Assembly (NCBI RefSeq): GCF_000172995.2
Contig: NC_014729.1
Coordinates: 660,001 to 692,000, forward strand
Reading direction: 5' to 3'
Source of the DNA: Halogeometricum borinquense DSM 11551
Lineage (GTDB): Archaea; Halobacteriota; Halobacteria; Halobacteriales; Haloferacaceae
Length of the DNA: 32,000 bases
Every line of letters starts with the position of its first letter. Position 1 is the first letter of the stretch. A program made the translations under genes and the position numbers. Shown here one piece after another: positions 2,638 through 31,435 of this stretch. Under the pieces are notes generated by a model that was not told the DNA's origin, did not search any database, and worked only from the letters and a program-made list of their open reading frames with translations.

Positions 2638-3486
2638 CTATTCCGCGTTTTCGGCGTCTTGGCCACCTTCGTCGTCGGCGCTCGCGTGCGAAAAGACGAA
2701 CTCGCGGAGGAGCTTCCCACCCAATGACGCGGCTTGGCCGTCGTCGCGGTCGTTCACCTCGACAACGTCGAAGCCGTCTGCGTTGGGTGCGACGGTTCGG
2801 ACTACGTCGCGCATCTCTCGCGGAGCCATCCCGAACGGTTCTGGTGTTCCCGTTCCCGGCGCGAACGCGGGGTCCGCGCCGTCGATGTCCACGCTGAGGT
2901 AGACTGATCGCCCGTCCAAGCGGTCACCGAAGTCGAAATCGGCAACGGCTTCGGGAGCGACGACGGTCACGTCTTCGGCCTCGGCGCGGTCCCATTCCTC
3001 TGGCGACCCGGTTCTCGCACCGAGGATGATCGCTTCCTCGGCGCCGAGAGTGTCGAGGACGCGTCGAGTGATGGTCGCGTGACTCCACTCGTTGCCGTCG
3101 TACTCGGATCGTAAGTCGAGATGCGCGTCGAGACAGACGAACACGTCGGGTTCGACGGCGTCTACACCGGCGTAGGTGACGGTGTGTTCGCCGCCGAGGA
3201 GAAGCGGAACGGCGTCGTCGAATCGTACGTCTCGGAGTGTTCCAGCGACCCACTCGACGTACTCTTGGGCGTCGTCCCACGGGTGGATATCGCCCTCATC
3301 GTGGACACAACAGTCGGAAAAGTGCAGGTCGGTCCGCCGGTCGTAGTCGTCGAACGTCCGGGCGAACCGCCGGATTCTCTCGGGACCAAATCGGGTCCCA
3401 GGTCGGAACGTTGTCGAGATATCCAGCGGGGCGCCCACGACGACGTACGCGGCGTCGTCACGTGATGCGGTTGCCCCGGGAAACAT
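2638..3486 (-). CDS. speB: agmatinase (arginase/ureohydrolase family)
   Basis: Mn-binding motifs GGEHTVT, DAHLDLR and SVDIDGADPAFAPGTGTPEPFG are present. The gene sits directly downstream of aIF5A on the same strand with a 5-nt gap. Confidence 0.9.
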   Translation of the reverse strand: MFPGATASRDDAAYVVVGAPLDISTTFRPGTRFGPERIRRFARTFDDYDRRTDLHFSDCCVHDEGDIHPWDDAQEYVEWVAGTLRDVRFDDAVPLLLGGEHTVTYAGVDAVEPDVFVCLDAHLDLRSEYDGNEWSHATITRRVLDTLGAEEAIILGARTGSPEEWDRAEAEDVTVVAPEAVADFDFGDRLDGRSVYLSVDIDGADPAFAPGTGTPEPFGMAPREMRDVVRTVAPNADGFDVVEVNDRDDGQAASLGGKLLREFVFSHASADDEGGQDAENAE

Positions 3487-3491
3487 CCCGA

Positions 3492-3866
3492 TTAGACGAT
3501 CTTTCGCTGACCTTCGTATTCGAGGTACTCGATCTCGTCCTCGGGCGAGAGGTCCTCGTCCTCGGGGATACGCATCGTGAACGTCTCGTACGTGCTGAGG
3601 TCCATGATCTGCGCGTCAGAGCCCGTCACAGAGACGACCTGTCCCTGTTTGCGCTCGATGATCGGCACCCACACCTTCGCGTCAACGGGCTGGCTGAGCG
3701 AGCGTTTCTTACTGTCGAAGACGCCCTTACCCTCGATTCGGGCCTTTGCACTGCCGTGCTTGCCGGGTTTGGCCGTGCTGTACGCATTAATTTTACACGG
3801 CGACTCATCCATCATCACGTAGCTACCTTCTTGAAGTTCGCGGACCTGCTTCTGTTCTTTAGGCAT
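3492..3866 (-). CDS. eif5a: translation initiation factor 5A (aIF5A)
   Basis: The sequence [22 protein letters not shown] contains the (deoxy)hypusine-acceptor Lys in the GKHG loop. The 124-aa length is typical. Confidence 0.95.
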
Positions 3867-3890
3867 ATCTGCGCGTTATCGGCAGACCGG

Positions 3891-3896
3891 TATAAA
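3891..3896 (-). promoter_or_regulatory. TATA-like box (TTTATA on the minus strand) for aIF5A-speB
   Basis: The element is centred about 27 nt upstream of the aIF5A ATG (3866). This spacing fits a leaderless haloarchaeal transcript. Confidence 0.4.
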
Positions 3897-4080
3897 CGGT
3901 TTGGAAACGGTTTATCCCCGCGTTCACCCTCGTGAACGGGTCACGAACGTGACGACGAGACGACTCGCTCTCGTCGCTGCTGAACCGCTATCGAACGACA
4001 CGAACGTCTGTCCTGTTTGAAACGGTGTTAACGATATTCACGTGATAGAGTACATCGGTGGGGAGGGAGAGTTTCGAACC

Positions 4081-4632
4081 ATGCCGCAGGATACGACTGC
4101 TCGCACCGACGCCGCTGTCAGTACTGTCGTCTACCGTCTTCGTCTGCCGCAGGGAGAGTCTCTCGCACGCCGCCTCCTCGCCGCTGAGTACGACCCCGAC
4201 GAAGGGCGCGGCCTCCTCCCGTCGGCGGTCGCCGCCTTCCGCATTGTTCGCCGTCGTCTCGGGTACGACGTCCCGCCGCTCTGCGATGCGGCCGAGACGC
4301 TCGATATCGACCCCCGCGACGTCGTCGCGGCGGAGCGAACGTTGGCCGCGTCGCTCTCGCCGCCCGCCGACGAGGACGAACAGCAACGACTGGACGACGC
4401 AATTCAGTCCATCCGAAACCGTCTTCAGACGGCTGAAGATGATGGAAATCCGGGGCATCACGGCCGGATGGTGTGTCCGGGAGAGAGCGCCGCTGAACTC
4501 CGCGCGCACCTCGACCGATTAGAAGCCGACCGGTCGATGGCGCGCCTGGGATTCACGCTGTACGACCTCGCTCACGGGAACAGCATCGCCCGAACGGGAC
4601 GACGGCCACAGAGCGGCGCGGACCACGCGTAA
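4081..4632 (+). CDS. hypothetical protein (acidic, soluble)
   Basis: This is the ORF 4042..4632. I prefer the ATG at 4081 (MPQDTT) over the GTG at 4042. The acidic composition fits the proteome better than the overlapping minus-strand ORF 3988..4509, which is R-rich. I recognised no motif. Confidence 0.45.
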   Translation: MPQDTTARTDAAVSTVVYRLRLPQGESLARRLLAAEYDPDEGRGLLPSAVAAFRIVRRRLGYDVPPLCDAAETLDIDPRDVVAAERTLAASLSPPADEDEQQRLDDAIQSIRNRLQTAEDDGNPGHHGRMVCPGESAAELRAHLDRLEADRSMARLGFTLYDLAHGNSIARTGRRPQSGADHA

Positions 4633-4651
4633 GTACGCGATAGCTGGTTAC

Positions 4652-5086
4652 TCAGGCTTCGTTCTCCGTATCTAACCATCCGTCCACGCCACCCGGCCCG
4701 TCTTCGTCGCGTCCGTCGCGTTCTCGTGAGAGACTTCCGAGGATACCCACCGCGACGTTCGGGAGCGTGACCGCAAGGAGTACTCCCGTCGTCGCTTCAC
4801 CGGGTGTATCGAACAACGGAGCGAGATATTCGAACGGGAACGGAAGCGTCCCGCCGCCGACGACGGCGAGTGCGACCAGGCCCGGGATGAGAACGATGCC
4901 CCACGTGAGCGCAGACAGCAGTCCGTGCCACGCCCCGTCGGCGGGATCTGGGCCAACTAGGTAGCCCGCGAAGGCGCTTCCGGCCAGTCCACCGACAAGC
5001 GTCACCCTTCCTGTCAATAAAAACACAATCGCTTCGCTGCATGCCGCGAGTGCAAATCCGGCTACCACGGCCCGCCAGCGGGTCAT
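4652..5086 (-). CDS. small integral membrane protein (about 4 TM, acidic C-terminal tail)
   Basis: Four hydrophobic G/A/L/V-rich segments are followed by a tail ending ...DGRDEDGPGGVDGWLDTENEA. Confidence 0.6.
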   Translation of the reverse strand: MTRWRAVVAGFALAACSEAIVFLLTGRVTLVGGLAGSAFAGYLVGPDPADGAWHGLLSALTWGIVLIPGLVALAVVGGGTLPFPFEYLAPLFDTPGEATTGVLLAVTLPNVAVGILGSLSRERDGRDEDGPGGVDGWLDTENEA

Positions 5087-6868: not shown

Positions 6869-7240
6869 TCAGGCCTCGGTGTCGTCGGCACTGGTGACGG
6901 GGATGGTCCGTTCGGGTGCGGCGTCGCGTTTCGGTAAGCGAATGGTGAGGACCCCGCGGTCTATCTCGCTGTCGGCCCCGGCACCCGTCGCGTCCGGCGG
7001 AAGCGGAATTTCGGCATCGAGAAACAGCGACCGGTCCTCGCGGACGTAGCGGAACTCGGGCGGAAGTTGCTTGTCGCGGCGCGCCTCGATGACAAGACGC
7101 CCCTTCTCGACGCGGACCTCCACCGTGTCGGGAGTGACCCCGGGAAGATCCAAAACGAGGAGGTACGCATCGTCGGACTCCAACAGGTCAGCGAACACCG
7201 CGTCCGGAAGTTCCTGAAGCGCGTCCCGCAGTGCAGACAT
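6869..7240 (-). CDS. hsp20: Hsp20/alpha-crystallin family small heat-shock protein
   Basis: The alpha-crystallin core pattern is present: YLLVLDLPGVTPDTVEVRVEKGRLVIEARR ... GVLTIRLPK. Confidence 0.8.
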   Translation of the reverse strand: MSALRDALQELPDAVFADLLESDDAYLLVLDLPGVTPDTVEVRVEKGRLVIEARRDKQLPPEFRYVREDRSLFLDAEIPLPPDATGAGADSEIDRGVLTIRLPKRDAAPERTIPVTSADDTEA

Positions 7241-7404
7241 ACCAATGCGTACGGATGCCGGGTCGAAAAAGGCCGCGGTCGGCGGCTCGTTGCCGGATTA
7301 CTTTGCGGCCCTGCCGCCGGAATCGACCCCAAAACACACCGAATCTGACGCCCCGCGCGCTCGACGCGCGGAGCCTTTTATGCTCCGCCCGCCAACTCCC
7401 GGCC

Positions 7405-8682
7405 ATGACGAACGCGCACGACCGGCAGACCGCCGGGTTCAAAGAGCGCACGCGGCTCGCCGACGCACGGGAGACGCTTCTTGCGGCGGCGACACCGCAC
7501 CAACGGACTGACACGCTCCCGCTCGGGCGGGTGGACGGTCGATCCCTTGCGGAGGCAGTCACCGCAGCGAATCCGGTCCCGAACTACGACCGCGCGGCGA
7601 TGGACGGGTGGGCCGTCCGCGCCGAAGACACGTTCGGTGCATCGGACCGGTCACCCTCGATTCTCCGCGTGGCAGTCAGCGAGGCCGAATCAGACGCCGA
7701 CGCCGCTGTCGAACCGGGATCAGCCGTCCGCGTCCACACGGGGAGCGAACTCCCGCCGGGTGCGGACGCCGTAGTCATGGTCGAACACGCGGACGTCGTC
7801 GGCAGCGAATTAGAGGTGTTCGACGCCGTTACCGAGGGAGAGAACGTCGGCGATGCGGGCGAAGATGTGGCGGAAGGACAGGAACTGTTCGATATCGGTC
7901 ACGAACTTCGCCCCTCCGACCTCGGGCTGCTGAAATCCGTCGGCCGCGACGAAGTGACGGTGTACGACCGGCCGACGGTCGGTGTGATCCCGACCGGCGA
8001 AGAACTCGTTCAGTCCGATCCTGAACCGGGGGAGGTCGTCGAGACGAACGGACTCACCGTCTCGCGGTTGGTTCACCGATGGGGCGGCGTGGCGACGTAC
8101 CGCAATGTAGTGACCGACGACCCGGCCGCTCTCCGTGCAGCCGTCCAACGGGATCTGACAAAGGACGTGGTTGTGACGACCGGCGGCTCCTCCGTCGGCG
8201 AGCGCGACCTGATTCCCGAAGTCGTGGACGAACTGGGCGAGGTACTCGTCCACGGTGTCGCCCTGAAACCGGGGCATCCTGTCGCCCTCGGCGTCGTCGA
8301 GGACACACCGGTCGTGATGCTCCCCGGCTATCCTGTCGCCTGCATCGTCAACGCCGTCCAGTTCCTCCGTCCGCTCCTGAAGCACGTCGGCCACCTCGAC
8401 GGCCGCCCGTACCCGTCTGTCGAGGCCCGTCTCGAACGGAAGATACCGAGCGAGCCCGGTGTGCGGACGTTCGCGCGCGTTCGCCTCCGCGAGGAGAACG
8501 ACGAGGGGGACAACGGTGGAAACGACCCGGTCGAACGAATCGCCGAACCGACTCGTACCTCCGGGTCGGGCGTTCTCTCCTCCGTCGCACTCGCTGATGG
8601 GTGGGTTGCCGTCCCCGAGGAGACGGAAGGATACGCCAAGGGTGAAACCGTGACTGTCGAAGGCTGGGAGTGGTCGGCGTGA
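7405..8682 (+). CDS. moeA: molybdopterin molybdotransferase MoeA
   Basis: Motifs NYDRAAMDGWAV, VVTTGGSSVGERD and LPGYPVA are present. I chose the start at MTNAHDR (ATG 7405). The upstream part of ORF 7231.. is R/P-rich and overlaps the hsp20 promoter region. Confidence 0.85.
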   Translation: MTNAHDRQTAGFKERTRLADARETLLAAATPHQRTDTLPLGRVDGRSLAEAVTAANPVPNYDRAAMDGWAVRAEDTFGASDRSPSILRVAVSEAESDADAAVEPGSAVRVHTGSELPPGADAVVMVEHADVVGSELEVFDAVTEGENVGDAGEDVAEGQELFDIGHELRPSDLGLLKSVGRDEVTVYDRPTVGVIPTGEELVQSDPEPGEVVETNGLTVSRLVHRWGGVATYRNVVTDDPAALRAAVQRDLTKDVVVTTGGSSVGERDLIPEVVDELGEVLVHGVALKPGHPVALGVVEDTPVVMLPGYPVACIVNAVQFLRPLLKHVGHLDGRPYPSVEARLERKIPSEPGVRTFARVRLREENDEGDNGGNDPVERIAEPTRTSGSGVLSSVALADGWVAVPEETEGYAKGETVTVEGWEWSA

Positions 8683-10613
8683 GCCGAAAGGAGTTCCGCG
8701 ACTTGGCCGCCCCGGAGGCGGCGCACGAGGCCATCGCGGGGCTGGATCTGACGCCCGAAACCGAGAGAGTCCCCCTGCGAGAGTCGCGCGGTCGTGTCCT
8801 CGCCGAACGGATCGACGCCGAGATGGACGTGCCCGGATTCGACAGAGCAAGTATGGATGGGTATGCCGTCCGCGCCCGCGACACGTTCGGTGCGGACGAA
8901 GCGTCGCCGGCGGAACTCGAACTCATCGGGGAGGTACACGCCGGAGTCGAACCCGACGTGGTCGTCGGAGAAGGCGAAGCGGCCGAAATCTCCACCGGTG
9001 CGGTGATGCCAGACGGCGCGGACGCCGTCGTCATCGTCGAACGAACCGAGGAACGCGACGGAACGCTCGTCGTCCGCGACGCCGTCGCACCGGGCGACAG
9101 CGTGATGCTTGCGGGCGCGGACGTAGCCGCCGGTGCGCGCGCACTCGGTCCCGGGACGTACCTGACGCCCCGCGAAATCGGCCTGCTTTCGGCGCTCGGC
9201 GTTGACGAGGTGCCTGTCCGCGGCAAACCGACTGTCGGAATTATCTCAACCGGTGACGAACTCGTCCGCCCCGGTGACCCGCTGAACAGCGACGCCGGAC
9301 AGATTTACGACGTGAATAGCTACACCATCGCCACCGGCGTTGAGGAGGCTGGCGGCGAGGTTCGTATGTATCCGCATGCGGGAGACGACTACGAAGAGAT
9401 GGAGCGAATCCTCGTGCAGGCGGCCGAGGAGTGCGATTTAGTGCTCTCCTCCGGATCCACCTCCGCCTCCGCCGTAGACGTTATCTACCGCGTCATCGAG
9501 GAACGCGGCGAACTCCTCCTGCACGGCGTCGCGGTCAAACCGGGCAAGCCGATGCTCGTCGGTACTCTCGGCGGCGAGCGTGGTGCCAAGAGTGAGAACA
9601 AAGGGGACACCGCGGCGACCGACTCGCCCTCCGCGTACGTCGGTCTCCCGGGCTATCCCGTCTCTGCGCTTACGATCTTCCAGACGTTTGTCGCGCCCGC
9701 TATCCGTCGCGCTGCCGGGCTTCCAAACCCTCAAACCGCGACCGTCTCGGGGTCGATGGCCGTCCGGGAACGGTACGCCGAGGGCCGACTGCGACTCATG
9801 CCCGTCGGCCTCCTCGAAAACGAGTCCGGCGAGACGCTCGTCTACCCGGTGGACAAAGGAAGCGGGGCAACCACCTCGCTGGTCGAAGCCGACGGCGTGG
9901 TCGAAGTTCATCCAGACACCGAGTACCTCGCCGACGGGGAGTCTGTCGAGGTACGTCTGTTCTCACCGGACGTACGTGCGCCGACGCTCCTCGGCGTGGG
10001 TGAGGATGACCCGGCACTGTCCCGACTCCTCGACAGACTCGACTCGCCGCGCTACCTCCCCGTCGGAAGCCGCGAGGGTCTGCGCCGCCTCCGCGACGGC
10101 GTGCCGGATGTCGCCGTCGTCGCCGGACCAACCGAACGAACCGTCGAAAGCGTCGATATCGGCGGCTGGACGCGCGAGTGGGGGCTTATCGTCCCCGCAG
10201 GCAACCCCGATGACGTATCCGGACTCTCCGACCTCGTCGCGCGTGACCTGCGGTTCGTCAACCGTGATACAAACGCCGGTCTCCGTGCAAGTCTCGATGC
10301 TGCTCTTGACGAACTCGCGGCCGAACGCGATACGTCGAAACGCGAACTCACAGCGCGGATCGACGGCTTCGAGTTGACGACGAAGGCGACGGAGAGTCCC
10401 GCAAGAGCCGTCCTGCGAGGAAAAGCTGACGCCGGACTCGGATTACGCGCCACCGCAAATGAGCTTGATATGGGGTTCATCCGAGTCGGAGACGAGTCCG
10501 TTCGTGTCCACGCGAACCCCGACAGAACGGAGAAGCCGAGCGTTGAAGCGATCACAGCGCTTCTCAGTGACGCTGACGACGTGTTCGACGAACTCTCCGG
10601 ATATAATCGGTAA
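8670..10613 (+). CDS. moeA: MoeA-family molybdopterin biosynthesis protein fused to a C-terminal periplasmic-binding-protein-like domain
   Basis: The N-terminal part carries GFDRASMDGYAVRA, SSGSTSAS and LPGYPVSA. An extra C-terminal region of about 230 aa (LLGVGEDDPALS...GFIRVGDE) resembles a substrate-binding domain. The start is GTG at 8670, or GTG at 8679 which overlaps the upstream stop as GTGA. Confidence 0.8.
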   Translation: MVGVSRKEFRDLAAPEAAHEAIAGLDLTPETERVPLRESRGRVLAERIDAEMDVPGFDRASMDGYAVRARDTFGADEASPAELELIGEVHAGVEPDVVVGEGEAAEISTGAVMPDGADAVVIVERTEERDGTLVVRDAVAPGDSVMLAGADVAAGARALGPGTYLTPREIGLLSALGVDEVPVRGKPTVGIISTGDELVRPGDPLNSDAGQIYDVNSYTIATGVEEAGGEVRMYPHAGDDYEEMERILVQAAEECDLVLSSGSTSASAVDVIYRVIEERGELLLHGVAVKPGKPMLVGTLGGERGAKSENKGDTAATDSPSAYVGLPGYPVSALTIFQTFVAPAIRRAAGLPNPQTATVSGSMAVRERYAEGRLRLMPVGLLENESGETLVYPVDKGSGATTSLVEADGVVEVHPDTEYLADGESVEVRLFSPDVRAPTLLGVGEDDPALSRLLDRLDSPRYLPVGSREGLRRLRDGVPDVAVVAGPTERTVESVDIGGWTREWGLIVPAGNPDDVSGLSDLVARDLRFVNRDTNAGLRASLDAALDELAAERDTSKRELTARIDGFELTTKATESPARAVLRGKADAGLGLRATANELDMGFIRVGDESVRVHANPDRTEKPSVEAITALLSDADDVFDELSGYNR

Positions 10614-11448: not shown

Positions 11449-12132
11449 TCAGTCTACGACGAATCCGCCGTCGGTAGCGACGCGTCGGTTCCGTAAATCC
11501 TCGAACGTCTCGACGCGTACGTCAGCAAGCACGCACCGCCCGCGCCGTTCGGGTGTGTGCCGTTCGACGTGGATGCCGTCAAGTCCGGCGTTCCATGCGG
11601 CCCCGATATCACTGGACCCGTCACCGGCGAGGACGCCTTGACTGTCTGAGTTGGGGTCGAGACCCAGCGCCTTCATCGTGTGATGGACTGGTTCTGGGTC
11701 CGGTTTCCACCCCAACTCTTCGGTACAACAGACGACGGTATCGAACCAGTCGCGGACGTCGAGGTGGTCGATCACCGGATCAGCGAGGAACTGCTGACAG
11801 TGAGTGACGACGCCCACCGGTCGGTCGTCTACGAGGTCTGCGAGGAGGTCAGTGGCATCGTCGTGGAGATACGTCGCCTCCGCGCGTGCCTGCGGGTCTT
11901 CGACGGCGTGGAAGGCGGGCCAGAAGTCGTCGGGATCGATATCCCACGCGCGCAGTTGTGGGTCACGTGCCCCGCCGAGGCCGTGCCAGATGATCTCGGC
12001 TTCACGGTCGGTGAACTCCCGGCCGAGTCGGTCGCCCACGCGGTCGAACACCTCGCGGGTGTACGACCAGTCGGCGTCTACGAGCGTGCCGTCGAGGTCG
12101 AATAGCCAGAAGTCGTACGCGTCGGCAACCAT
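11449..12132 (-). CDS. HAD-superfamily hydrolase (phosphatase-like)
   Basis: Motif I is FDLDGTLVD. Motif IV resembles AGDGSSDIGAAWNAG. Confidence 0.8.
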   Translation of the reverse strand: MVADAYDFWLFDLDGTLVDADWSYTREVFDRVGDRLGREFTDREAEIIWHGLGGARDPQLRAWDIDPDDFWPAFHAVEDPQARAEATYLHDDATDLLADLVDDRPVGVVTHCQQFLADPVIDHLDVRDWFDTVVCCTEELGWKPDPEPVHHTMKALGLDPNSDSQGVLAGDGSSDIGAAWNAGLDGIHVERHTPERRGRCVLADVRVETFEDLRNRRVATDGGFVVD

Positions 12133-12290
12133 CGGAAATCAATTATATGCGATCTATAGCTAAGTGCTTTTCGCCGTTACTATCGGCATATCCCATATCT
12201 CACACCGGAAAGAACGTCACAAATCACGACTGAGCGGTCCGGTTTCACTTCTTTCGAAATTCTCATTGGCGTCCACTATAAATTTGTTCT

Positions 12291-12740
12291 ATGTTTAGAA
12301 GGCGGTTCCTCGCGGAACTCGGCAGTGTGGGCGGAGCGATTGCAATTGCCGGCTGTTCCGGTCCCTCGAACGGTGCTTCAGGCACCACCACGCCCTCTCT
12401 CGATGAGATAAAGGAGAACGCTTCCGCTGTAAAACACGAATCGTTGTACCGGGATAACAGCCAGTACAAGGGTGAGTACGTCGTTTTCGAGGATGTCTAC
12501 ATCGCCGATGTCGTTACGTCAGATGATGGGTTACACGAGTACATTATCGGCGTTCCGCAGGATGGCCTTTTTGACGATGATTACCTCTGGGGAACGTGGA
12601 CGGGTGACCCGTACCGAGAAAACGATCAGATCACTCTCTGGGGGAAGGTAACCGGGCTACACGAATACGACACGCTCGGTGGCAATAAAACGGTCCCCGA
12701 ACTGGAGTTGGTTGACATCGAACTGCTCGATAGCGCGTAA
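12291..12740 (+). CDS. Tat-signal lipoprotein, function unknown
   Basis: The N-terminus MFRRRFLAELGSVGGAIAIAGCSG has a twin-arginine motif, a hydrophobic region and a lipobox Cys. GC is locally lower: one hand-counted coding line gives 50 % and the upstream intergenic line about 37 %. Confidence 0.65.
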   Translation: MFRRRFLAELGSVGGAIAIAGCSGPSNGASGTTTPSLDEIKENASAVKHESLYRDNSQYKGEYVVFEDVYIADVVTSDDGLHEYIIGVPQDGLFDDDYLWGTWTGDPYRENDQITLWGKVTGLHEYDTLGGNKTVPELELVDIELLDSA

Positions 12741-12750
12741 CGAACGGCTC

Positions 12751-13125
12751 TCAGCTATCGTCCTCGATTCGAATACTCGACCCCAGATACTTGTGAAGCA
12801 CTTCGCGGGTGGAGTCAGCATTAAACAGCGTGAGGTCTGCAGCAATCTCCGTGCGCAACGCCTCCATGTACGCCTCGTCAGCACGCAACTCGCTGAACGA
12901 GACGGACTCGACCGGGAGGGAGAGCCACTCTTCGGCGAGTTCACGTGCGTACCGGTCGTCGTTGACTTCACCCCGCCAGAGCGTGTTGCGGAAGAACAGC
13001 CAATCGCCCTCGCCCGGTTCGTCGGCAGGAACTTCAACGACGGTCTCGAACGACCTCGGGTTCGTTCGAACTCCGGACGCTGGGTCGAGTCTGAACTGGA
13101 CGCGAAAGACGTACGCGGCATTCAC
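12751..13125 (-). CDS. conserved-looking acidic hypothetical protein, tightly coupled to the pterin dehydratase gene
   Basis: The GTG at 13125 lies 2 nt after the TAG of the upstream gene (TAGCCGTG). The product begins (M)NAAYVFRVQFRLDP...WLFFRNTLWRGEV. The R-rich prefix of ORF 12751..13353 overlaps the PCD gene and is rejected. Confidence 0.5.
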   Translation of the reverse strand: MNAAYVFRVQFRLDPASGVRTNPRSFETVVEVPADEPGEGDWLFFRNTLWRGEVNDDRYARELAEEWLSLPVESVSFSELRADEAYMEALRTEIAADLTLFNADSTREVLHKYLGSSIRIEDDS

Positions 13126-13127
13126 GG

Positions 13128-13403
13128 CTATCGTTCGTCGTCGAATAGGTCCGCAAGGCGGATGTCTTTTTCCGTGATTCCACCCTCTTCGTGGCTGGTA
13201 AGGCGCACTTCGACCGTTTTGTAGCCGACGATTATTTCGGGATGGTGGAACTCTTCTTCTGCAACTTCGCCCACCTTCGTGACGAACTCGATTCCCCTCA
13301 GGTAGTCGTCGAACTCGTACGTCTTCGTGATCTCGTCGCCGTCGCGTTCCCACTCGTCGGGGAGTTGGCTCTCTATCTCGTCGTCGTCAAGTAGTTCGGC
13401 CAT
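13128..13403 (-). CDS. 4a-hydroxytetrahydrobiopterin (pterin-4a-carbinolamine) dehydratase family protein
   Basis: The signature EEFHHPEI is present within ...FVTKVGEVAEEEFHHPEIIVGYKTVEVRLTSHE. The 91-aa length is typical. Confidence 0.85.
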   Translation of the reverse strand: MAELLDDDEIESQLPDEWERDGDEITKTYEFDDYLRGIEFVTKVGEVAEEEFHHPEIIVGYKTVEVRLTSHEEGGITEKDIRLADLFDDER

Positions 13404-13444
13404 GGTCGGCGTCTCGGACGCCGAGAGAATAATCTTTCTCCCAA

Positions 13445-14800
13445 TCAGTCGTCCGCGAGACTTTCGAGGACGTGCTGACCGTCGTCTGCGTCGTTAGACG
13501 CGTCTTCGGGTATCGCTCCACGCGGTCCTGAGGGCGTGTCGAACGACGGTTCCCCGCCGCTGAAGTCGGGATCGAACAGCGTCATCGCCGTCTGGATGGT
13601 GTCCCAGTCGTCCTCAACGGCGGCCTCGCGGAGACTCTTCGTCGGCGCGGAGAGCAGTTGGCCGACCAGCGCATCCGCCAGCGCAGCGACGGTTTCTCGC
13701 TGGTCGTCGGTCAACTCTCCCTGTGCGTCGAGTTTCGCCAGAGCCGTCTCCAGTTCCCGCTGTTTGACCTCCTCTGCGGCCTCGTACATGCCGCTGATGG
13801 CTCGGTCGGCACGTTTCCGTTTGAACGACTTCAAGAGCCGCTCGAACTCGTCGTCTATCATAGATTCTACTCGTTCGGCCGCCTCGCGCCGCAGTTCGCG
13901 CGTTTCGTCCGTGACCGCCTCTAATCCGTCCATGTCGTGAACGACGATGTCGGGAAGCGAATCGACGGCAGGGTCAACGTCGCGCGGTTGTGCGAGGTCG
14001 ATCAGTGTCGTCTCGCCGCTCGTTTCGACGTGGGGCGACGAAAGAACGTACTCGGGACTGCCCGTCGCTGAAATGACCACGTCTGCTGCTTCGATGGCTG
14101 CTTCGACGGCACTGAGCGGAAGGGCGCGCGCCGGAACGTCAACCTCTTCGGCGACGTGCTCTGCGTGCGGAAGCGTCCGGTTTGCGACGACCAGTTCGCC
14201 GATACCCGCAGCAGCGAGTGATTCTGCCGCCAACGTCCCCATCTCGCCCGCGCCGATGACTAACGCTGTCGCGCCGTCAAGTGTCGTTTCGGACTTTGCG
14301 AGCCGAACCGCGGCCGAGCCGAGCGACAGCGCCCCCTCGTTGATTTCGGTCTCTGTGCGTGCGCGTTCGCCGACGTGGATTGCCTTCGTCACGGCATCGT
14401 CCAGCATCGGACCGATACCGCCCGCGCCTCGTGCCTCCTCGAACGACCGCTTGATTTGGCCGAGAATCTGGTCCTCGCCGAGGACGAGCGATTCGAGTCC
14501 CGCCGCGACTCGCATCAGGTGACGGAGGCTCTGCTCGTGGTCCATCTCGACGACCGCCCCGTCCCGCACGTCGGGTGCGAAGTCGGTGAGTGCCCGTCGG
14601 CCGGTGGCCTGCGCGTCGGTGACGACGTAGGCTTCGGCCCGGTTGCACGTGTGGAGGGCGAACGCCTCCGAGACCTCCTCGTTAGTGAGGAGCGATTCGA
14701 CGGTGGTACGAACGTCGTCGTCGGACGCCGACGCGACCTCGTCTACGGTCGCGTGGTCGTGAGACACACGAACTCCAGAGATGACTCCTGCGTTTCTCAT
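13445..14800 (-). CDS. hemA: glutamyl-tRNA reductase
   Basis: The active-site motif HTCNRAE and the NADPH-binding motif VIGAGEMG are present. The 4-nt ATGA overlap couples it to the upstream gene. Confidence 0.92.
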   Translation of the reverse strand: MRNAGVISGVRVSHDHATVDEVASASDDDVRTTVESLLTNEEVSEAFALHTCNRAEAYVVTDAQATGRRALTDFAPDVRDGAVVEMDHEQSLRHLMRVAAGLESLVLGEDQILGQIKRSFEEARGAGGIGPMLDDAVTKAIHVGERARTETEINEGALSLGSAAVRLAKSETTLDGATALVIGAGEMGTLAAESLAAAGIGELVVANRTLPHAEHVAEEVDVPARALPLSAVEAAIEAADVVISATGSPEYVLSSPHVETSGETTLIDLAQPRDVDPAVDSLPDIVVHDMDGLEAVTDETRELRREAAERVESMIDDEFERLLKSFKRKRADRAISGMYEAAEEVKQRELETALAKLDAQGELTDDQRETVAALADALVGQLLSAPTKSLREAAVEDDWDTIQTAMTLFDPDFSGGEPSFDTPSGPRGAIPEDASNDADDGQHVLESLADD

Positions 14801-17740: not shown

Positions 17741-18673
17741 ATGAGACAGTGGCTTCGTCGGCAGTTCAACGGCGCATACGAGCGGATGCTCCGCCGTGAA
17801 CTTGGAGGCGGTCCCGCACACGTTGCCATCATTCAGGACGGGAACCGACGATACGCCCGTCGCCGCGGCGATGAGGCTCCGGACGGCCATAAGGAAGGCG
17901 CAAAGACGGCTGAGCAGGTCCTTCACTGGTGCGAGGAGTTCGGTGTCGAGGAACTGACGCTGTACACCTTCTCGACGGAGAACTTCGACCGCCCGCAGGA
18001 GGAACTTGAACCCCTGTTCGACCTCATCGAAGAGAAACTGTACGAGTTCGCAGACGCCGAACGCGTTCACGAAGCCGGCGTCCGTATTTGCACGATTGGT
18101 GAGACCGACCGTCTCCCACCGCGCGTCCGTGAGGCGATAGAATATGCCGAAAGTCGGACACGCGGCTACGACGGGTTCTGCCTCAACATCGCCCTCGCCT
18201 ACGGCGGCCGGGCGGAACTCCTCGGTGCCGTCCGCGACGTGGCCCGCGACGTTACCTCTGGAACGCTCTCGCCCGACGACGTTACCGTCGAAGAAATCGA
18301 CAGCAGACTGTGTCAGCATCCCACCCGCGACGTTGACCTCATCATCCGCACCGGCGGCGCTGAGCGAACCTCGAACTTCCTCCCGTGGCACGCCAACGGC
18401 AACGAGGCGGCCGTCTACTTCTGCGCACCGTACTGGCCGGAGTTCTCGAAAGTGGACTTCCTCCGCGGCCTCCGGACGTACGAGTCACGCGAGAAGTCGT
18501 GGCAGCGCACCCGCACCGAACGCGCCGTCGCACTCGTCCGCTCGGTCGCTGAGACGGAACTGGCCGAGGCGAGGGCCGTCACCGCCCGCCTCCGCGAGAA
18601 ACTACCCTCCGCCGGTGCCGAAGAGGTTGCTGCGGAGTTGGAGCGACAGGGCGACACCGAAGCGGCGGACTGA
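17741..18673 (+). CDS. uppS: cis-prenyltransferase (undecaprenyl/polyprenyl diphosphate synthase family), catalytic-type subunit with charged C-terminal extension
   Basis: Motifs HVAIIQDGNRRYARRRG, YTFSTENFDRP and DLIIRTGGAERTSNFLPW are present. The canonical C-terminal R-x-G (RRFG) is absent: the sequence reads ...LRTYESREKSWQRTR and continues into about 60 aa of A/E/R-rich tail. Confidence 0.88.
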   Translation: MRQWLRRQFNGAYERMLRRELGGGPAHVAIIQDGNRRYARRRGDEAPDGHKEGAKTAEQVLHWCEEFGVEELTLYTFSTENFDRPQEELEPLFDLIEEKLYEFADAERVHEAGVRICTIGETDRLPPRVREAIEYAESRTRGYDGFCLNIALAYGGRAELLGAVRDVARDVTSGTLSPDDVTVEEIDSRLCQHPTRDVDLIIRTGGAERTSNFLPWHANGNEAAVYFCAPYWPEFSKVDFLRGLRTYESREKSWQRTRTERAVALVRSVAETELAEARAVTARLREKLPSAGAEEVAAELERQGDTEAAD

Positions 18674-18741: not shown

Positions 18742-18799
18742 GGGCTATCGACCGAACCGGTGTCGGACACATCCGACGAAATTCGGGCTATCGACCGAA
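18742..18799. repeat. 15-nt perfect direct repeat GGGCTATCGACCGAA (18742-18756 and 18785-18799) flanking a hairpin GTCGGA-CACA-TCCGAC (18762-18777)
   Basis: Read directly from the sequence. The second copy contains the last codons and the stop (..FGR*) of the minus-strand cis-prenyltransferase-like gene. The element lies between convergent genes and may act as a terminator. Confidence 0.75.
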
Positions 18800-19396
18800 T
18801 CGCCGCTGTCGGTTCTGGAAGTCCAACACCGCTCGTAGGTAATCGCGCTTTCTGAAGTCCCGCCAGTTCACGTCGGTAAAGTACAGTTCCGAGTACACCG
18901 ACTGCCAGATCATGAAGTCTGAGAGCCGTTCCGCGCCGGTTTTGATGAGCAAGTCGGGTTCGTCCTGAAAGACCAGTCGTTCCTCGACGTGTTCTGCCCC
19001 GATGTCCTCCGGCGAAAGGTCGCCCGCGTCCACGTCTTCTGCGATATCGCGGACCACGTCGGCGAACTCGCGTTTGCCGCCGAGTCCGATGCTCACCTGC
19101 ACCGGTTCGTCGGCGCGTTCTCTGTCACCCGGTCCGCGGACGGCCATCGAGCGCGGCGATTCGATGTCGCGGAGTTCGCGTTCCAGCGTCGGAACGACGG
19201 CTTCGTCGAGTACGCTCACCGAGACAGTGACGCGTTCGGCACCGAACTCGAACGCCCAGCGGAGGAACCGTTCGAGTGTCTCGTAGGCTCCCTGTTCGAG
19301 GAGGTCACGTTCGGTAATCACAACCGCAACGTGCGAGGGGGAGTCGGCGTCGTGCAGTCGATGTCGAAGTGCGAGGTAACCGTCGTACAGTCCCAC
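18788..19396 (-). CDS. cis-prenyltransferase-family protein lacking the N-terminal catalytic motif but retaining the C-terminal RXG motif (NgBR/Nus1-like accessory subunit candidate)
   Basis: HVAVVITERDLLEQG replaces the H-x-x-I-I-x-DGNRR motif. The C-terminal half is conserved (DLLIKTGAERLSDFMIWQSVYSELYF...W) and the protein ends exactly in ...FQNRQRRFGR. Confidence 0.8.
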   Translation of the reverse strand: MGLYDGYLALRHRLHDADSPSHVAVVITERDLLEQGAYETLERFLRWAFEFGAERVTVSVSVLDEAVVPTLERELRDIESPRSMAVRGPGDRERADEPVQVSIGLGGKREFADVVRDIAEDVDAGDLSPEDIGAEHVEERLVFQDEPDLLIKTGAERLSDFMIWQSVYSELYFTDVNWRDFRKRDYLRAVLDFQNRQRRFGR

Positions 19397-29468: not shown

Positions 29469-29963
29469 TCACACGTGGTTTTCGAGAAGCGCAACGAAGT
29501 CTTCGGCATCTGCATCACGTGCGAGGCTGAGGGGGCTGATTTCAGCTTGGTTCTCGTGAGTTGGGTCAGCACCGTGCGTAACGAGCAGATTCGTCAACTC
29601 GTAGTTTCCGTTAGCCACCGCTTTGTGAAGCGGCTGTGCTCCATACATATCTTCAATATCGAGTCTAGCGCCATTTTCGACAAGCATCTCAACGATCTCA
29701 TGATGTCCACGATCAACCGCTTCATGGAGTGGGGTTCTCCCCTGATTGTCCTTGGCATCAAGTTCGATCCCACGCTCAATCAGTTCCGCAGCGAATTCGG
29801 GTTCTCCTGTCCATGCTGCTATGTGCAGTAAGTTACCACCATCTCCAGAACGGTGGTTCAAATCAGCATCCGAAATCAGCTGGTAAAACTGCTCTTTGTT
29901 GTTTTGAATGATTGCGGATTCGATCTCCGTGCTGGTGTATAGCTCGTCATCTTTCTCAGCCAT
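29469..29963 (-). CDS. ankyrin-repeat protein (3 full repeats + capping repeat); candidate immunity protein
   Basis: The repeats are GGNLLHIAAWTGEPEFAAELIERGIELDAKD, NQGRTPLHEAVDRGHHEIVEMLVENGARLDIED and MYGAQPLHKAVANGNYELTNLLVTHGADPTHEN. The ATG at 29963 overlaps the upstream stop by 8 nt (ATGGCTGA). Hand-counted lines give 42-53 % GC. Confidence 0.85.
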   Translation of the reverse strand: MAEKDDELYTSTEIESAIIQNNKEQFYQLISDADLNHRSGDGGNLLHIAAWTGEPEFAAELIERGIELDAKDNQGRTPLHEAVDRGHHEIVEMLVENGARLDIEDMYGAQPLHKAVANGNYELTNLLVTHGADPTHENQAEISPLSLARDADAEDFVALLENHV

Positions 29964-31212
29964 GTTTCTCACCTTCGATATCTCCCCATTTTTGCTTCCA
30001 ATACCTTCCTACTCCTTCATGTCTTCTACCCATATTTTCTCTTGGTGCTTCAGCTTGGTAGTGGTCCGGATTCTGGTACTCTTTCACGAATTCCTCTTCC
30101 GATATAATTCCTTGTTGATAATACTCAAGAAGATATCTGTATTCTCGCTGTTTTTTGTGGCCCATATGCCATTGTTCTCCTCTACCTCTGTCTTTGTCCC
30201 ACGTTAGCACTTCTTCTGTGTTTGGATCTCGAACCTTGTCGTCAATTCCCTCTGATCTTGCTCTGTTCCAGACTTCTTCGACTTGTCCTGGAGCGTACGG
30301 TGGTCGATGATCAATACTGTATTTTTTCTGCTTATACTGTTCTGTGTCTTTTTCGGCGAATCGACCGATATTGTCCCGAGGCTGATCTCTCCACCGCTGA
30401 ATGTGCACATCGGCTTTGTGCATCCGATAGATGCCGAGTTTCCCGCCGCTCATCACCCGCTGGGCCGTCTCTTCGGCTTCCCGTTCGAGACGCTCGTCAG
30501 GATCAATTTCTAATTTCCCTTCTTGCGGGAGCATCGAGACGGCCCCACCTGTTTGCTGTCTCACATGCGCTAACTCGTGAGCGAGCAGGTGTTGACCTTC
30601 TGTTGAAGAAGGGTCGTACTCGCCGTGGTTGAACGCGACATGATTTCCCACCGTGAACGCGCGAGCGTTGATATCCTCACAGGCGTTTGCGGCGCGTGAC
30701 CCAGTATGGATACGCACGTCGTCCAAACTCTCGCCCATGCGCTCTTCCATCGCTTGTTGAATTGAGCTATCGAGTTGCTGGCCTGGCGAAGAAATCACGT
30801 CACGAACCGAATCGGGGACTTGCGCGTTTCCAGATTTCGACGCCTCGTGGTGCGCGCCACGACTGCGCTGGACTGATTTAGCGTTCCGGCGCTCTATGTC
30901 TTTGGGCACTTCGGCAGGACGCTGTTTTTGCCGTTCACGGAATGCACGCATGTCGCGCGGTTTGCCCATCGTGTCCACGGTCATGCCCTCGTCGGCCCAC
31001 TGCTGGACTTGGCCCGCGCCGTGTTGTTTGACAAGACGTTGGACTATCACCTCCAATCCATTCCGATACATGTCCATGCCGAAGCGCTGTTCGCAGCCCT
31101 GTGCGGTCAGCCGTCCACTGCGTTGCCGACGCGAGGAGTCCACGCGGTCCCGCTCGCTAGAAGGAGACCATTGGGTTTTCTTTTGCACCTCGTTCGCGGA
31201 GCGAAATCCCAT
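29956..31212 (-). CDS. polymorphic-toxin-like protein: unknown basic N-terminal region + DUF4157 (HExxH metallopeptidase-like) + C-terminal GH-E/HNH-EndoVII-fold nuclease domain
   Basis: The DUF4157 pattern is QLDSSIQQAMEERMGESLDDVRIHTGSRAANACEDINARAFTVGNHVAFNHGEYDP...GQHLLAHELAHVRQQ. The C-terminal GH-E pattern is VRDPNTEEVLTWD...WHMGHKKQREYRYLL...EYQNPDHYQAEAPRENMGRRHE. The ATG at 31212 is preferred over 31278 because of the TATA box 28-34 nt upstream. Confidence 0.8.
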   Translation of the reverse strand: MGFRSANEVQKKTQWSPSSERDRVDSSRRQRSGRLTAQGCEQRFGMDMYRNGLEVIVQRLVKQHGAGQVQQWADEGMTVDTMGKPRDMRAFRERQKQRPAEVPKDIERRNAKSVQRSRGAHHEASKSGNAQVPDSVRDVISSPGQQLDSSIQQAMEERMGESLDDVRIHTGSRAANACEDINARAFTVGNHVAFNHGEYDPSSTEGQHLLAHELAHVRQQTGGAVSMLPQEGKLEIDPDERLEREAEETAQRVMSGGKLGIYRMHKADVHIQRWRDQPRDNIGRFAEKDTEQYKQKKYSIDHRPPYAPGQVEEVWNRARSEGIDDKVRDPNTEEVLTWDKDRGRGEQWHMGHKKQREYRYLLEYYQQGIISEEEFVKEYQNPDHYQAEAPRENMGRRHEGVGRYWKQKWGDIEGEKHG

Positions 31213-31239
31213 CGTTCGATTTCGCTGACACAACCTTCG

Positions 31240-31246
31240 TATATAA
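31240..31246 (-). promoter_or_regulatory. TATA box (TTATATA on the minus strand) of the toxin/immunity operon
   Basis: It lies 28-34 nt upstream of the ATG at 31212, inside an AT-rich stretch. If 31278 were the start it would fall inside the coding sequence. Confidence 0.45.
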
Positions 31247-31435
31247 TTGTTTGTTGCTGAGATAACATGGGAAAACACAATTTAGATGGACAACAAAATC
31301 GTCCGCCTCGCGGACGCTCAGGACTACATGCTGTCGGAACAGCGGTCGCGGCAGGTGTCACGCGACATATTCGCACCCAAACCGTACTGGTTGGTCTTAA
31401 GTAGGTTGGACCGTAACCATCGGTCATGCCCGAGG

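Follow-up and report, generated by a model that had tools for sequence, protein, structure and literature searches.

A pair of overlapping genes lies on the minus strand of the Halogeometricum borinquense DSM 11551 chromosome, flanked by pdxS (SOR_SNZ) and a DUF1405 gene. The genes code for a predicted effector of 418 aa (ADQ66343.1 / ELY27667.1 (C499_08857) / WP_006055088.1; 418/418 residues identical to P0121) and for an ankyrin-repeat protein of 164 aa. The window, i.e. the whole 32-kb stretch of DNA that was analysed, is otherwise occupied by housekeeping genes and carries no genes for contractile injection, secretion, or phage tails. An earlier note, made from the sequence alone, had described a two-gene minus-strand operon at this position, with a 418-aa toxin starting at the ATG at 31212, a 164-aa ankyrin protein, and no delivery genes in the window. 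The ORF list, domain annotation of the flanking genes, and inspection of all 32 kb bear this description out. The features of the locus are:

29956..31212, minus strand: effector/toxin gene, 418 aa plus stop codon (ORF list; Pfam)
29469..29963, minus strand: ankyrin-repeat gene, 164 aa, strongly acidic product; predicted cognate immunity protein (Imm-ank) (Pfam Ank; linkage to GH-E)
29956..29963, minus strand: ATGGCTGA, 8-nt overlap of toxin stop and ankyrin ATG (sequence)
31240..31246, minus strand: TTATATA, TATA-box-like element about 31 nt 5' of the toxin ATG (sequence read)
31120..31212, minus strand: residues 1-31, hydrophilic, basic, predicted-disordered N-terminus; candidate cargo signal for a contractile injection system (CIS) (AF2, composition)
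30835..31104, minus strand: residues 37-126, family-specific helical region before the peptidase-like domain (AF2 helices, conservation)
30544..30777, minus strand: residues 146-223, eCIS_core / DUF4157 / PVC-metallopeptidase domain (PF13699)
30394..30399, minus strand: invariant Gln272-Arg273, junction between constant module and variable toxin cassette (alignment, breakpoint, GC3)
30016..30243, minus strand: residues 324-399 (Pfam match), GH-E toxin domain of the HNH/EndoVII superfamily (PF14410)

The toxin ORF begins with the ATG at 31212 and ends with a stop codon at 29956-29958. The ankyrin gene had been said to start 8 nt before the end of the toxin gene, and this is indeed the case (ATGGCTGA); the overlap implies translational coupling, and an identical 8-nt overlap is found in a Halobaculum locus (L003). 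A GTG-extended alternative toxin frame would code for 440 aa and reach 31278. The reading of TTATATA as a TATA box follows the position rule for haloarchaeal promoters. Its distance of about 31 nt from the ATG favors the ATG start, and its placement would imply a leaderless or very short-leader toxin transcript. In a promoter/terminator scan, the number of sites was not above that expected from shuffled sequence. The interval between the ankyrin gene and DUF1405 is empty, with no trailing orphan toxin cassettes or immunity arrays, and NCBIfam returned nothing specific for the gene pair.

The toxin locus is identical or nearly identical in two independently sequenced isolates, and a toxin-free allele of the pdxS-DUF1405 locus was not found. 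An apparent strain polymorphism at this site was dismissed, as contig L043 and the window are 100% identical and only the gene calling differs.

The N-terminal 273 residues of the toxin form a constant module, which is shared by more than 1000 homologues with diverse C-termini. The module starts with MGFRS, as do the paralogues of the toxin. Residues 1-31 are modeled by AF2 at a pLDDT of about 35, and residues 1-35 are hydrophilic and basic (mean Kyte-Doolittle -1.66; 9 K+R vs. 4 D+E). Hydrophilic disordered N-termini have been described as an eCIS signal (Danov et al., 2024, PMC11297309). Conventional export features had been reported as lacking, and the 418-aa protein has neither a transmembrane segment (averaged over 19 aa, the Kyte-Doolittle value reaches at most 0.18) nor a twin-arginine motif. 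Residues 37-126 have no Pfam match; they are modeled as helices at pLDDT 69-91 and are conserved across the haloarchaeal family members.

The central domain matches PF13699 at residues 146-223 with E=1.2e-31 and 109.1 bits (profile positions 1-78 of 79), where the curated cut-off is 22 bits. PF13699 was formerly named DUF4157 and is now named eCIS_core. The intact HExxH motif reported for this domain is HELAH (H212-H216, nt 30579-30565) and lies exactly where it had been placed. It extends to HExxHxxQ (H212, E213, H216, Q219), and no substitution of H212, E213, H216, Q219, or Q220 occurs in 30 aligned family sequences. Together with a conserved downstream Glu, HExxHxxQ is the signature of the PVC-metallopeptidases (Zhang et al., 2012, PMC3482391); E243 and E247 are nearly invariant and are both candidates for this Glu. 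The domain is modeled as a helix-strand core at a pLDDT of about 80-90. Its best Foldseek match in the PDB, a mini-metallopeptidase zymogen (4jiu), is non-significant at E=2.6. For the bacterial DUF4157 toxin Cgo1, toxicity does not need the HExxH motif (Danov et al., 2024, PMC11297309).

The C-terminal domain (CTD) had been assigned to the GH-E nucleases in the earlier note, and the profile check proposed there was run. PF14410 matches residues 324-399 with E=4.9e-26 and 91.6 bits over the full profile (1-68), compared to a curated cut-off of 25 bits. The folded unit extends over about residues 300-414 (nt 29971-30315), and the key GH/E/N/E residues are present as G351, H352, E388, N393, and E399. 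Among these, G351 and H352 show no variation, E388 and E399 are conserved in at least 90% of the homologues, and N393 is replaced in a few of them. The domain-only AF2 model has a pLDDT of 90.8 and a pTM of 0.83. With this model, Foldseek retrieved the HNH nucleases Cap5, McrA, Cas9, and colicin E7 at non-significant E-values of 6-9.5. Searches against the PDB with full-length and domain-only models gave no significant solved structural homologue for either DUF4157 or GH-E, all matches having E>1, so that the fold assignments of both domains rest on sequence profiles. A PDB sequence search with the full toxin returned no GH-E structure; its only match, a subunit of an ATP synthase (E=0.21), is due to chance.

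When only the nuclease domain served as query, a word-indexed homology search gave just 2 matches, and an exhaustive HMMER search was used instead. In all 588 representative clusters that it retrieved, the GH-E domain is C-terminal. The 30 carriers of the CTD that were sampled include 10 with eCIS_core and 5 with RHS repeats, while PT-HINT, Tox-PAAR-like, and Hint_2 occur once each. The nearest relatives of the CTD outside the haloarchaea are almost all metagenome proteins, with one bacterial protein from Halarcobacter.

The boundary between the constant module and the nuclease cassette is sharp. Gln272-Arg273 is invariant in the family alignment, and nucleotide homology to related loci stops within 4 nt of the junction codon in 19 of 36 comparisons. 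The junction lies in a low-confidence linker of the AF2 model (residues 256-290). It also coincides with a compositional step: compared with a GC3 of 0.71-0.83 for host genes, the N-terminal module has 0.63 and the CTD 0.37, and the value for the ankyrin gene is 0.50. A bacterial origin of the low-GC nuclease cassette is plausible. At the level of sequence, the toxin has a modular junction at Gln272-Arg273, and a constant module followed by variable C-termini behind a sharp junction is the architecture of polymorphic toxins.

The 164-aa partner matches several Pfam ankyrin families, including Ank_2 and Ank, with E-values from 1e-15 to 3e-23. It is encoded directly downstream of the toxin and in the same orientation, which is the layout of Imm-ank genes. 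An ankyrin homologue directly follows the toxin gene in 6 of 6 loci with a GH-E C-terminus but in 0 of 26 loci whose C-termini are of other kinds (Fisher p=1.1e-6, a value which overstates independence since the loci are related). Within the loci compared, the linkage between toxin and ankyrin is therefore strict. The H. borinquense genome contains three GH-E/ankyrin pairs, one of them with a truncated toxin, and these have co-diverged (43-47% identity between the CTDs, 33-47% between the ankyrin proteins). The previous annotation, which paired a polymorphic toxin with a cognate immunity protein of the ankyrin type, is strengthened by this linkage, by the modular junction, and by the compositional step.

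In the earlier note, the mode of delivery had been considered an open puzzle. A membrane-bound T6SS-like CIS has, however, been described for the same strain; it is encoded by Hbor_38640-38890 on the 210-kb plasmid pHBOR03 (Zachs et al., Sci Adv 2024, PMC11566945). The puzzle does not persist, as this CIS secretes DUF4157 paralogues. Cryo-tomography of H. borinquense has shown the CIS anchored at the cytoplasmic membrane; the killing of Haloferax volcanii by H. borinquense is contact- and sheath-dependent (PMC11566945). Five DUF4157 proteins are enriched in the wild-type secretome compared to that of a cis2 mutant, and three of the secreted proteins (Hbor_01880, Hbor_02990, and Hbor_07690) are encoded far from the CIS cluster, their secretion requiring an intact sheath gene (PMC11566945). 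It had also been stated that no such archaeal module has been characterized. This no longer holds, since four toxin/partner pairs from the same strain, other than the one described here, have been validated in Hfx. volcanii, where the downstream gene neutralizes the toxin (PMC11566945). Some H. borinquense DUF4157 proteins are not toxic to Hfx. volcanii, for which the authors suggest other targets (PMC11566945). Overall, the DUF4157/GH-E toxin with its ankyrin partner stands as previously described, while the claims of missing delivery and of absent characterization do not.

The constant module of the toxin (residues 1-273) is 75-85% identical to those of the secreted proteins Hbor_01880 (P0031) and Hbor_02990 (P0024/P0131). 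The nine proteins with reported significant enrichment in the secretome of the wild type do not include ADQ66343.1, nor was its gene one of those expressed in Hfx. volcanii (PMC11566945). The order of accessions had suggested that the toxin might be the secreted Hbor_07690. This was rejected because the published primers encode MGFRST.../...EVQWQ*, so that both termini differ, and find no site in the window even when 3 mismatches are allowed. In Haloferax sp. S1W, family members that are 74-78% identical in the module are encoded in a CIS cluster that is complete (Phage_GPD, Phage_base_V, PAAR, gp25, sheath, two tube genes, Pvc16_N, and AAA). The GH-E/Ank copy of that strain is chromosomal and is followed by an immunity array (SUKH, a second Ank, and Colicin_immun).

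We consider it highly probable that the gene pair is an effector-immunity module which serves the H. borinquense CIS, the pair being chromosomal and the machine being encoded on pHBOR03. Residues 1-273, comprising the disordered basic leader, the helical region, and eCIS_core, would act as an address, coupling the protein to the CIS, and residues 274-418 would be an exchangeable GH-E nuclease cassette. After contact-dependent injection, this cassette would degrade nucleic acid in the cytoplasm of a neighboring haloarchaeon. The co-translated acidic ankyrin protein would bind and block the nuclease in the producer and its sister cells, and the cassette of nuclease and ankyrin may have been gained via recombination at the invariant Gln-Arg junction. 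We infer secretion, nuclease activity, and neutralization for this pair, as well as any proteolytic role of the HExxH motif; for paralogues from the same strain, the literature has shown that secretion depends on the CIS, that the proteins are toxic, and that the downstream gene protects (PMC11566945).

An extended version of this reading is put forward only tentatively, and we are inclined to doubt it. The 273-aa module might be a self-processing loader that acts in trans across replicons, its HExxH motif cutting at Gln272-Arg273 during or after injection and so freeing the GH-E nuclease, while the three pairs in the genome might represent specificities that do not cross-protect and that serve haloarchaea in kin discrimination. 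Autoprocessing for toxin release has been proposed in general form (Zhang et al., 2012, PMC3482391).

The toxin might instead be the cargo of a released extracellular particle (eCIS/PVC mode), freed by lysis and possibly directed at bacteria or eukaryotes. PF13699 is the signature of eCIS cargo, these proteins had been placed in the PVC secretory system (Zhang et al., 2012, PMC3482391), the absence of toxicity to Hfx. volcanii for some DUF4157 proteins would fit other targets, and the only named organism among the closest non-haloarchaeal CTD relatives is the bacterium Halarcobacter. Nevertheless, we regard release of a particle as unlikely, given the membrane attachment of the CIS in the same strain and its need for contact when killing (PMC11566945). 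A dedicated immunity gene further argues for targets that share the cytoplasmic chemistry of the producer, i.e., kin or related haloarchaea.

Very unlikely, in our view, is an intracellular toxin-antitoxin or abortive-infection module, with a nuclease that is never exported and becomes freed from the ankyrin protein upon stress or infection. An overlapping two-gene operon for a nuclease and a small acidic partner, the foreign composition, and the absence of the toxin from the published CIS-dependent secretome (PMC11566945) would all be compatible with such a module, and ankyrin repeats occur in some candidate defense systems. However, PADLOC found no matching defense-system family for the toxin, and its matches to the ankyrin protein are generic and confined to the repeat level. 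Two-thirds of the toxin consist of a module that is 75-85% identical to CIS-secreted proteins and is found within CIS clusters; this 273-aa conserved module would be superfluous for a toxin of the toxin-antitoxin type. The CTD, moreover, is common to exported toxins of the RHS, PAAR-like, and HINT types. The same absence from the secretome could be taken to indicate a silent or decaying paralogue, kept only because its ankyrin protein protects against the GH-E toxins of neighbors. The truncation of one toxin among the three GH-E/ankyrin pairs points in this direction, as does the foreign codon usage (CTD GC3 0.37), which could limit expression. Yet the ORF is full-length with all conserved catalytic and junction residues intact, a TATA-like element of its own precedes it, its N-terminus is the native one of the family, and the locus is preserved in two independently sequenced isolates, which makes a silent or decaying paralogue highly improbable.

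An effector-immunity module serving the CIS is therefore our preferred interpretation. With a characterized injection machine on pHBOR03 in the same organism, the locus does not represent a new type of archaeal toxin export: the pair belongs to an already known kind of effector, and the mystery of the missing delivery system is removed. The pair would be the first archaeal T6SS-like effector with a recognizable enzymatic activity (a predicted nuclease) and a recognizable immunity class (ankyrin). Three diverged GH-E/ankyrin pairs in a single genome provide material for a study of specificity and cross-immunity. For probing the old idea that DUF4157 is a releasing peptidase or a loading adaptor, the invariant Gln-Arg junction, with an intact HExxH motif beside it, offers a precise site. 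If self-processing were true, the junction and the system of three pairs would be directly testable in a genetically tractable archaeon.

The closest known counterparts are the CIS pairs of the same strain and family (Hbor_02990, Hbor_38900, and Hbor_38740 with their downstream genes, and the secreted Hbor_01880, Hbor_07690, and Hbor_38720; PMC11566945). Like the present pair, they combine an N-terminal module that is constant with a C-terminus that varies and with a small partner encoded downstream, and some are likewise chromosomal and distant from the plasmid-borne machine (PMC11566945). The toxin described here differs in having a recognizable GH-E C-terminus and an ankyrin partner, whereas the published H. 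borinquense toxins have no obvious toxin domain (PMC11566945). At most of the family loci that were examined, the downstream partner is a protein of about 320 aa (DUF7958 where gene calls are Pfam-annotated) rather than an ankyrin protein.

The combination of PVC-metallopeptidase, Tox-GH-E, and Imm-ank had already been tabulated by Zhang, de Souza, Anantharaman, Iyer, and Aravind (Biol Direct 2012, PMC3482391). Their catalogue describes Tox-GH-E as having an HNH/EndoVII fold, GH/E/N/E residues, PVC-type delivery, and a phyletic range that includes euryarchaeota, and it names H. borinquense as holding several PVC-metallopeptidase toxins with variable C-termini (PMC3482391). It is purely computational, and the text examined does not single out this locus. 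It assumed that a PVC-like particle is released for delivery (PMC3482391); the H. borinquense machine was later shown to be membrane-anchored and contact-dependent (PMC11566945).

Bacterial eCIS-associated toxins (EATs) have a hydrophilic disordered leader, an N-terminal DUF4157 domain with HExxH, and a C-terminal toxin, nucleases included, in common with this protein (PMC8213781, PMC11297309). Adjacent immunity genes are occasional in these and many lack one, in contrast to the tightly coupled predicted immunity gene found here (Geller et al., 2021, PMC8213781; PMC11297309). Most bacterial EATs are encoded within about 10 genes of an eCIS operon (PMC8213781, PMC11297309), whereas this toxin gene resides on a replicon separate from that of the machine. 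A further difference from bacterial EATs is that the haloarchaeal family has about 130 aa of additional conserved helical sequence ahead of DUF4157. Bacterial Rhs, PAAR, and HINT toxins that end in GH-E carry a homologous nuclease cassette with 40-55% identity, but they differ entirely from the toxin described here in N-terminal delivery module and route of secretion.

The minus-strand gene pair of Halogeometricum borinquense DSM 11551 codes for a putative toxin and an ankyrin-repeat protein. The two ORFs overlap by 8 nt (ATGGCTGA), in agreement with the earlier note, and have the following features.

Features of the gene pair and of the proteins it encodes (window coordinates; genes from ORF reading)
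31246-31240, minus strand: TTATATA element, ca. 31 nt upstream of the toxin ATG
31212 (ATG) to 29956-29958 (stop), minus strand: putative toxin gene, 418 aa
Toxin residues 146-223: eCIS_core (PF13699, formerly DUF4157), Pfam E=1.2e-31, 109 bits (cut-off 22)
Toxin residues 212-216, nt 30579-30565: HELAH (HExxH motif)
Toxin residues 324-399: GH-E (PF14410), Pfam E=4.9e-26, 91.6 bits (cut-off 25)
29963 (ATG) to 29469, minus strand: ankyrin-repeat gene, 164 aa

The 418-aa protein is identical over 418/418 residues to ADQ66343.1/ELY27667.1 (C499_08857)/WP_006055088.1 from H. borinquense DSM 11551, and the ADQ66343.1 gene is located on the 2.82-Mb chromosome. An alternative GTG start at 31278 would extend the toxin to 440 aa. 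The TTATATA element is presumably an archaeal TATA box serving a leaderless or short-leader mRNA, and its distance from the ATG favors the 418-aa start. The N-terminus MGFRS also occurs in paralogues. A GC-rich hairpin followed by a T-run (CGTCCGCGAGGCGGACG ATTTTGTTGT; 31300-31316, minus strand) is found in the divergent pdxS-toxin intergenic region, directly upstream of the TATA-like box. It may be due to chance because such sites are no more common in the scan than in shuffled sequence.

The rest of the window carries chromosomal housekeeping genes and, as previously noted, no injection, secretion, or phage-tail genes. Among the genes are those for deoxyhypusine synthase, aIF5A, agmatinase, an ABC1 kinase, two MoeA proteins, HemA, sirohaem enzymes, UPP synthase, DUF92, a Toprim protein, an SSF transporter, DUF1405, and PdxS; tRNAs and Rfam families were not detected in the window. 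The MoeA paralogues are tandem and slightly overlapping (7231-10613, plus strand), and the second of them carries a PBP_like (periplasmic-binding-protein-like) domain as a C-terminal fusion. A full-length cis-prenyltransferase of the UPP synthase family (17741-18673, plus strand) adjoins a convergent 202-aa ORF (18788-19396, minus strand). The match of this ORF to the same Pfam model is confined to the model's C-terminal half; the ORF may be a truncated copy, or a paralogue whose start was called wrongly. In the ca. 1.3-kb interval separating the HAD hydrolase gene from hemA (12132-13445), the ORFs, on both strands, all overlap one another; the one searched against Pfam (12751-13353, minus strand) gave no match, nor was an RNA family found in this interval.

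Pfam confirmed the DUF4157 domain with its intact HExxH motif and the C-terminal GH-E domain. The protein is devoid of a hydrophobic segment (maximal 19-residue Kyte-Doolittle mean 0.18) and of a twin-arginine motif, as had been described. When GH-E-bearing family members were aligned, G351 and H352 showed no substitution and E388 and E399 almost none; N393 is retained in the window protein and substituted in several homologues. These residues agree with the published GH/E/N/E signature. An exhaustive HMMER search found GH-E in 588 representative clusters (proteins of 100-3260 aa), always at the extreme C-terminus. In a sample of 30 carriers, all with a GH-E score, eCIS_core was present in 10, RHS repeats in five, and PT-HINT, Tox-PAAR-like, or Hint_2 in single proteins. 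The full-length AF2 model consists of a disordered (1-31), a helical (37-126), and a peptidase-like (134-255) region, followed by a low-confidence linker (256-290) and a compact domain (300-414), which is confidently predicted when modeled alone (pLDDT 90.8). Foldseek against the PDB returned no significant match for either model, only hits with E>1 (a mini-metallopeptidase; the HNH nucleases Cap5, McrA, Cas9, and colicin E7), so that the fold assignments rest on sequence profiles.

A homology search with the 418-aa protein retrieved 1034 relatives, which are nearly all haloarchaeal and occur several times per genome. Over residues 1-273, the protein shares 75-85% identity with Hbor_01880 (homologue P0031) and Hbor_02990 (P0024/P0131). 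In a 30-sequence alignment, H212, E213, H216, Q219, Q220, and Q272-R273 are invariant; past R273, the sequences split into unrelated C-termini. Compared with the window gene, DNA homology breaks at most 4 nt from the R273 codon in 19 of 36 related loci. Within the toxin gene, GC3 falls from 0.63 (codons 1-273) to 0.37 (codons 274-418) at the Q272-R273 junction; the flanking host genes have 0.71-0.83 and the ankyrin gene 0.50. The invariant dipeptide, the divergent C-termini, the DNA breakpoint, and the GC3 step fall together, a pattern characteristic of an imported, putative toxin/immunity cassette that recombination has attached to a constant delivery module.

A short-read assembly of the H. 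borinquense genome breaks at window position 30583 (start of Logan contig L042), within the conserved N-terminal module at the HExxH region. Such a break would fit a module that acts as a multi-copy repeat and collapses assemblies; draft genomes thus probably give too low a copy number for the family. Several family members from Haloferax larsenii and Natrinema thermotolerans (P0010, P0030, P0037) carry the older GenBank name "transposase" and appear to be misannotated DUF4157 effectors.

The 164-aa protein was confirmed to match Pfam ankyrin families (E 1e-15 to 3e-23) and is strongly acidic (34 D+E vs. 10 K+R). A homologue of this ankyrin protein is encoded directly downstream in all six GH-E loci examined, compared to none of 26 family loci with other C-termini (Fisher p=1.1e-6, the loci not being independent of each other). 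The six are the window locus, two further eCIS_core-GH-E genes from the same genome, and one locus each from Haloferax sp. S1W, Halobaculum sp. MBLA0147 (with the same 8-nt overlap), and Haloferax elongans. Among the three H. borinquense pairs, identity is 43-47% between the nuclease domains and 33-47% between the ankyrin proteins, a joint divergence as expected if the pairs have distinct toxin-immunity specificities.

The two further pairs are ca. 6 kb apart (3015-4871 and 10001-11376 on contig L044, AOHT01000033). The toxin of the latter, with 299 aa in the draft and 269 aa when annotated as Hbor_04090, is missing ca. 130 residues at its N-terminus, and its draft copy has an internally duplicated HELAHVRQQ segment; this copy is either decaying or wrongly assembled. 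A copy of the window protein with at least 90% identity occurs only in DSM 11551-type assemblies and one other isolate (RZHH01, 2.81-Mb contig). For the H. borinquense strains with 3.99-Mb and 2.818-Mb contigs, only a 63%-identical GH-E paralogue is among the matches listed, which suggests that the window cassette is present or absent according to strain. Most haloarchaeal family members have no recognizable toxin domain (L004-L037, L038/L039, L044 9016-9978). They have a C-terminus of ca. 150-230 aa, often coiled-coil-like, followed by a partner of ca. 300-330 aa; wherever the gene calls carry Pfam annotation (L038, L039, L044), this partner is DUF7958. This commonest pairing may include the published immunity partners.

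The architecture was catalogued in 2012. The PVC-metallopeptidase (HExxHxxQ-E; now eCIS_core) was defined as a constant N-terminal marker of toxins from phage-tail-like systems and proposed to free the toxin through autoproteolysis; Tox-GH-E (GH, E, N, E) was tabulated with euryarchaeota, PVC delivery, PVC-metallopeptidase, and Imm-ank, and H. borinquense was named as an archaeon with several such toxins of variable C-terminus (Zhang et al., 2012, PMC3482391). DUF4157 is a core marker of eCIS cargo, with loading, chaperone, and maturation as hypothesized roles (Geller et al., 2021, PMC8213781; Danov et al., 2024, PMC11297309). H. borinquense was shown to kill Haloferax volcanii on contact via a membrane-anchored T6SS-like contractile injection system (CIS) encoded by Hbor_38640-38890 on the 210-kb plasmid pHBOR03 (Zachs et al., 2024, PMC11566945). 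According to that study, five DUF4157 proteins (Hbor_01880, 02990, 07690, 38720, 38900) are more abundant in the secretome of the wild type than of a sheath mutant, three secreted ones being encoded far from the CIS cluster, and Hbor_02990, 38900, 38740, and 38760 could be expressed in Hfx. volcanii only when the downstream gene was co-expressed. The delivery machinery is thus known, and modules of the same type experimentally characterized, in this very strain, whereas the earlier note had seen no delivery genes in the window and was aware of no experimentally characterized archaeal module. While the annotation proposed there is now better supported, its claim of novelty falls, given the 2012 catalogue for this species and the family delivery and toxin/immunity behavior demonstrated in the strain in 2024.

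Accession order suggested that the window gene might be Hbor_07690. The published primers for Hbor_07690 encode MGFRST... and ...EVQWQ*, compared to MGFRSAN... and ...GEKHG* in the window, and no site for the forward primer was found in the window even with three mismatches allowed. The window gene is an additional paralogue beside the published tested and reported H. borinquense effectors.

An intracellular toxin-antitoxin or defence module is unlikely, as the toxin has no PADLOC match and two-thirds of it consist of the module common to proteins known as secreted. That the toxin is delivered by a released eCIS particle, or has a non-archaeal target, is likewise unlikely, since the CIS of this strain behaves as membrane-anchored and contact-dependent (PMC11566945). 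The gene is possibly a silent paralogue, and its product is not among the reported secretome hits (PMC11566945); against this, all conserved residues and the promoter-like element are intact. We consider the locus a further member of the known effector-immunity kind, with toxicity and secretion as predicted properties. It offers a test case, with a recognizable nuclease effector, predicted ankyrin immunity, and three diverged pairs within one genome; the mapped Gln-Arg junction beside an intact HExxH could be used to probe DUF4157 as a releasing peptidase versus a loading adaptor.

On the Haloferax sp. S1W chromosome (L002, 7266-10484), the genes downstream of the GH-E/ankyrin pair are of immunity type and have no toxin genes beside them: SUKH/SMI1_KNR4, a second ankyrin protein, DUF7957, and Colicin_immun. 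The run resembles a poly-immunity array, an arrangement described as rare in archaea. On plasmid pHFX2 from the same strain, family members whose N-terminal module is 74-78% identical are embedded in a complete set of CIS genes (Phage_GPD, Phage_base_V, PAAR, gp25, sheath, two tube genes, Pvc16_N, AAA ATPase). Haloferax sp. S1W and H. borinquense are thus alike in that the CIS is encoded on a plasmid but the GH-E/ankyrin pair on the chromosome.
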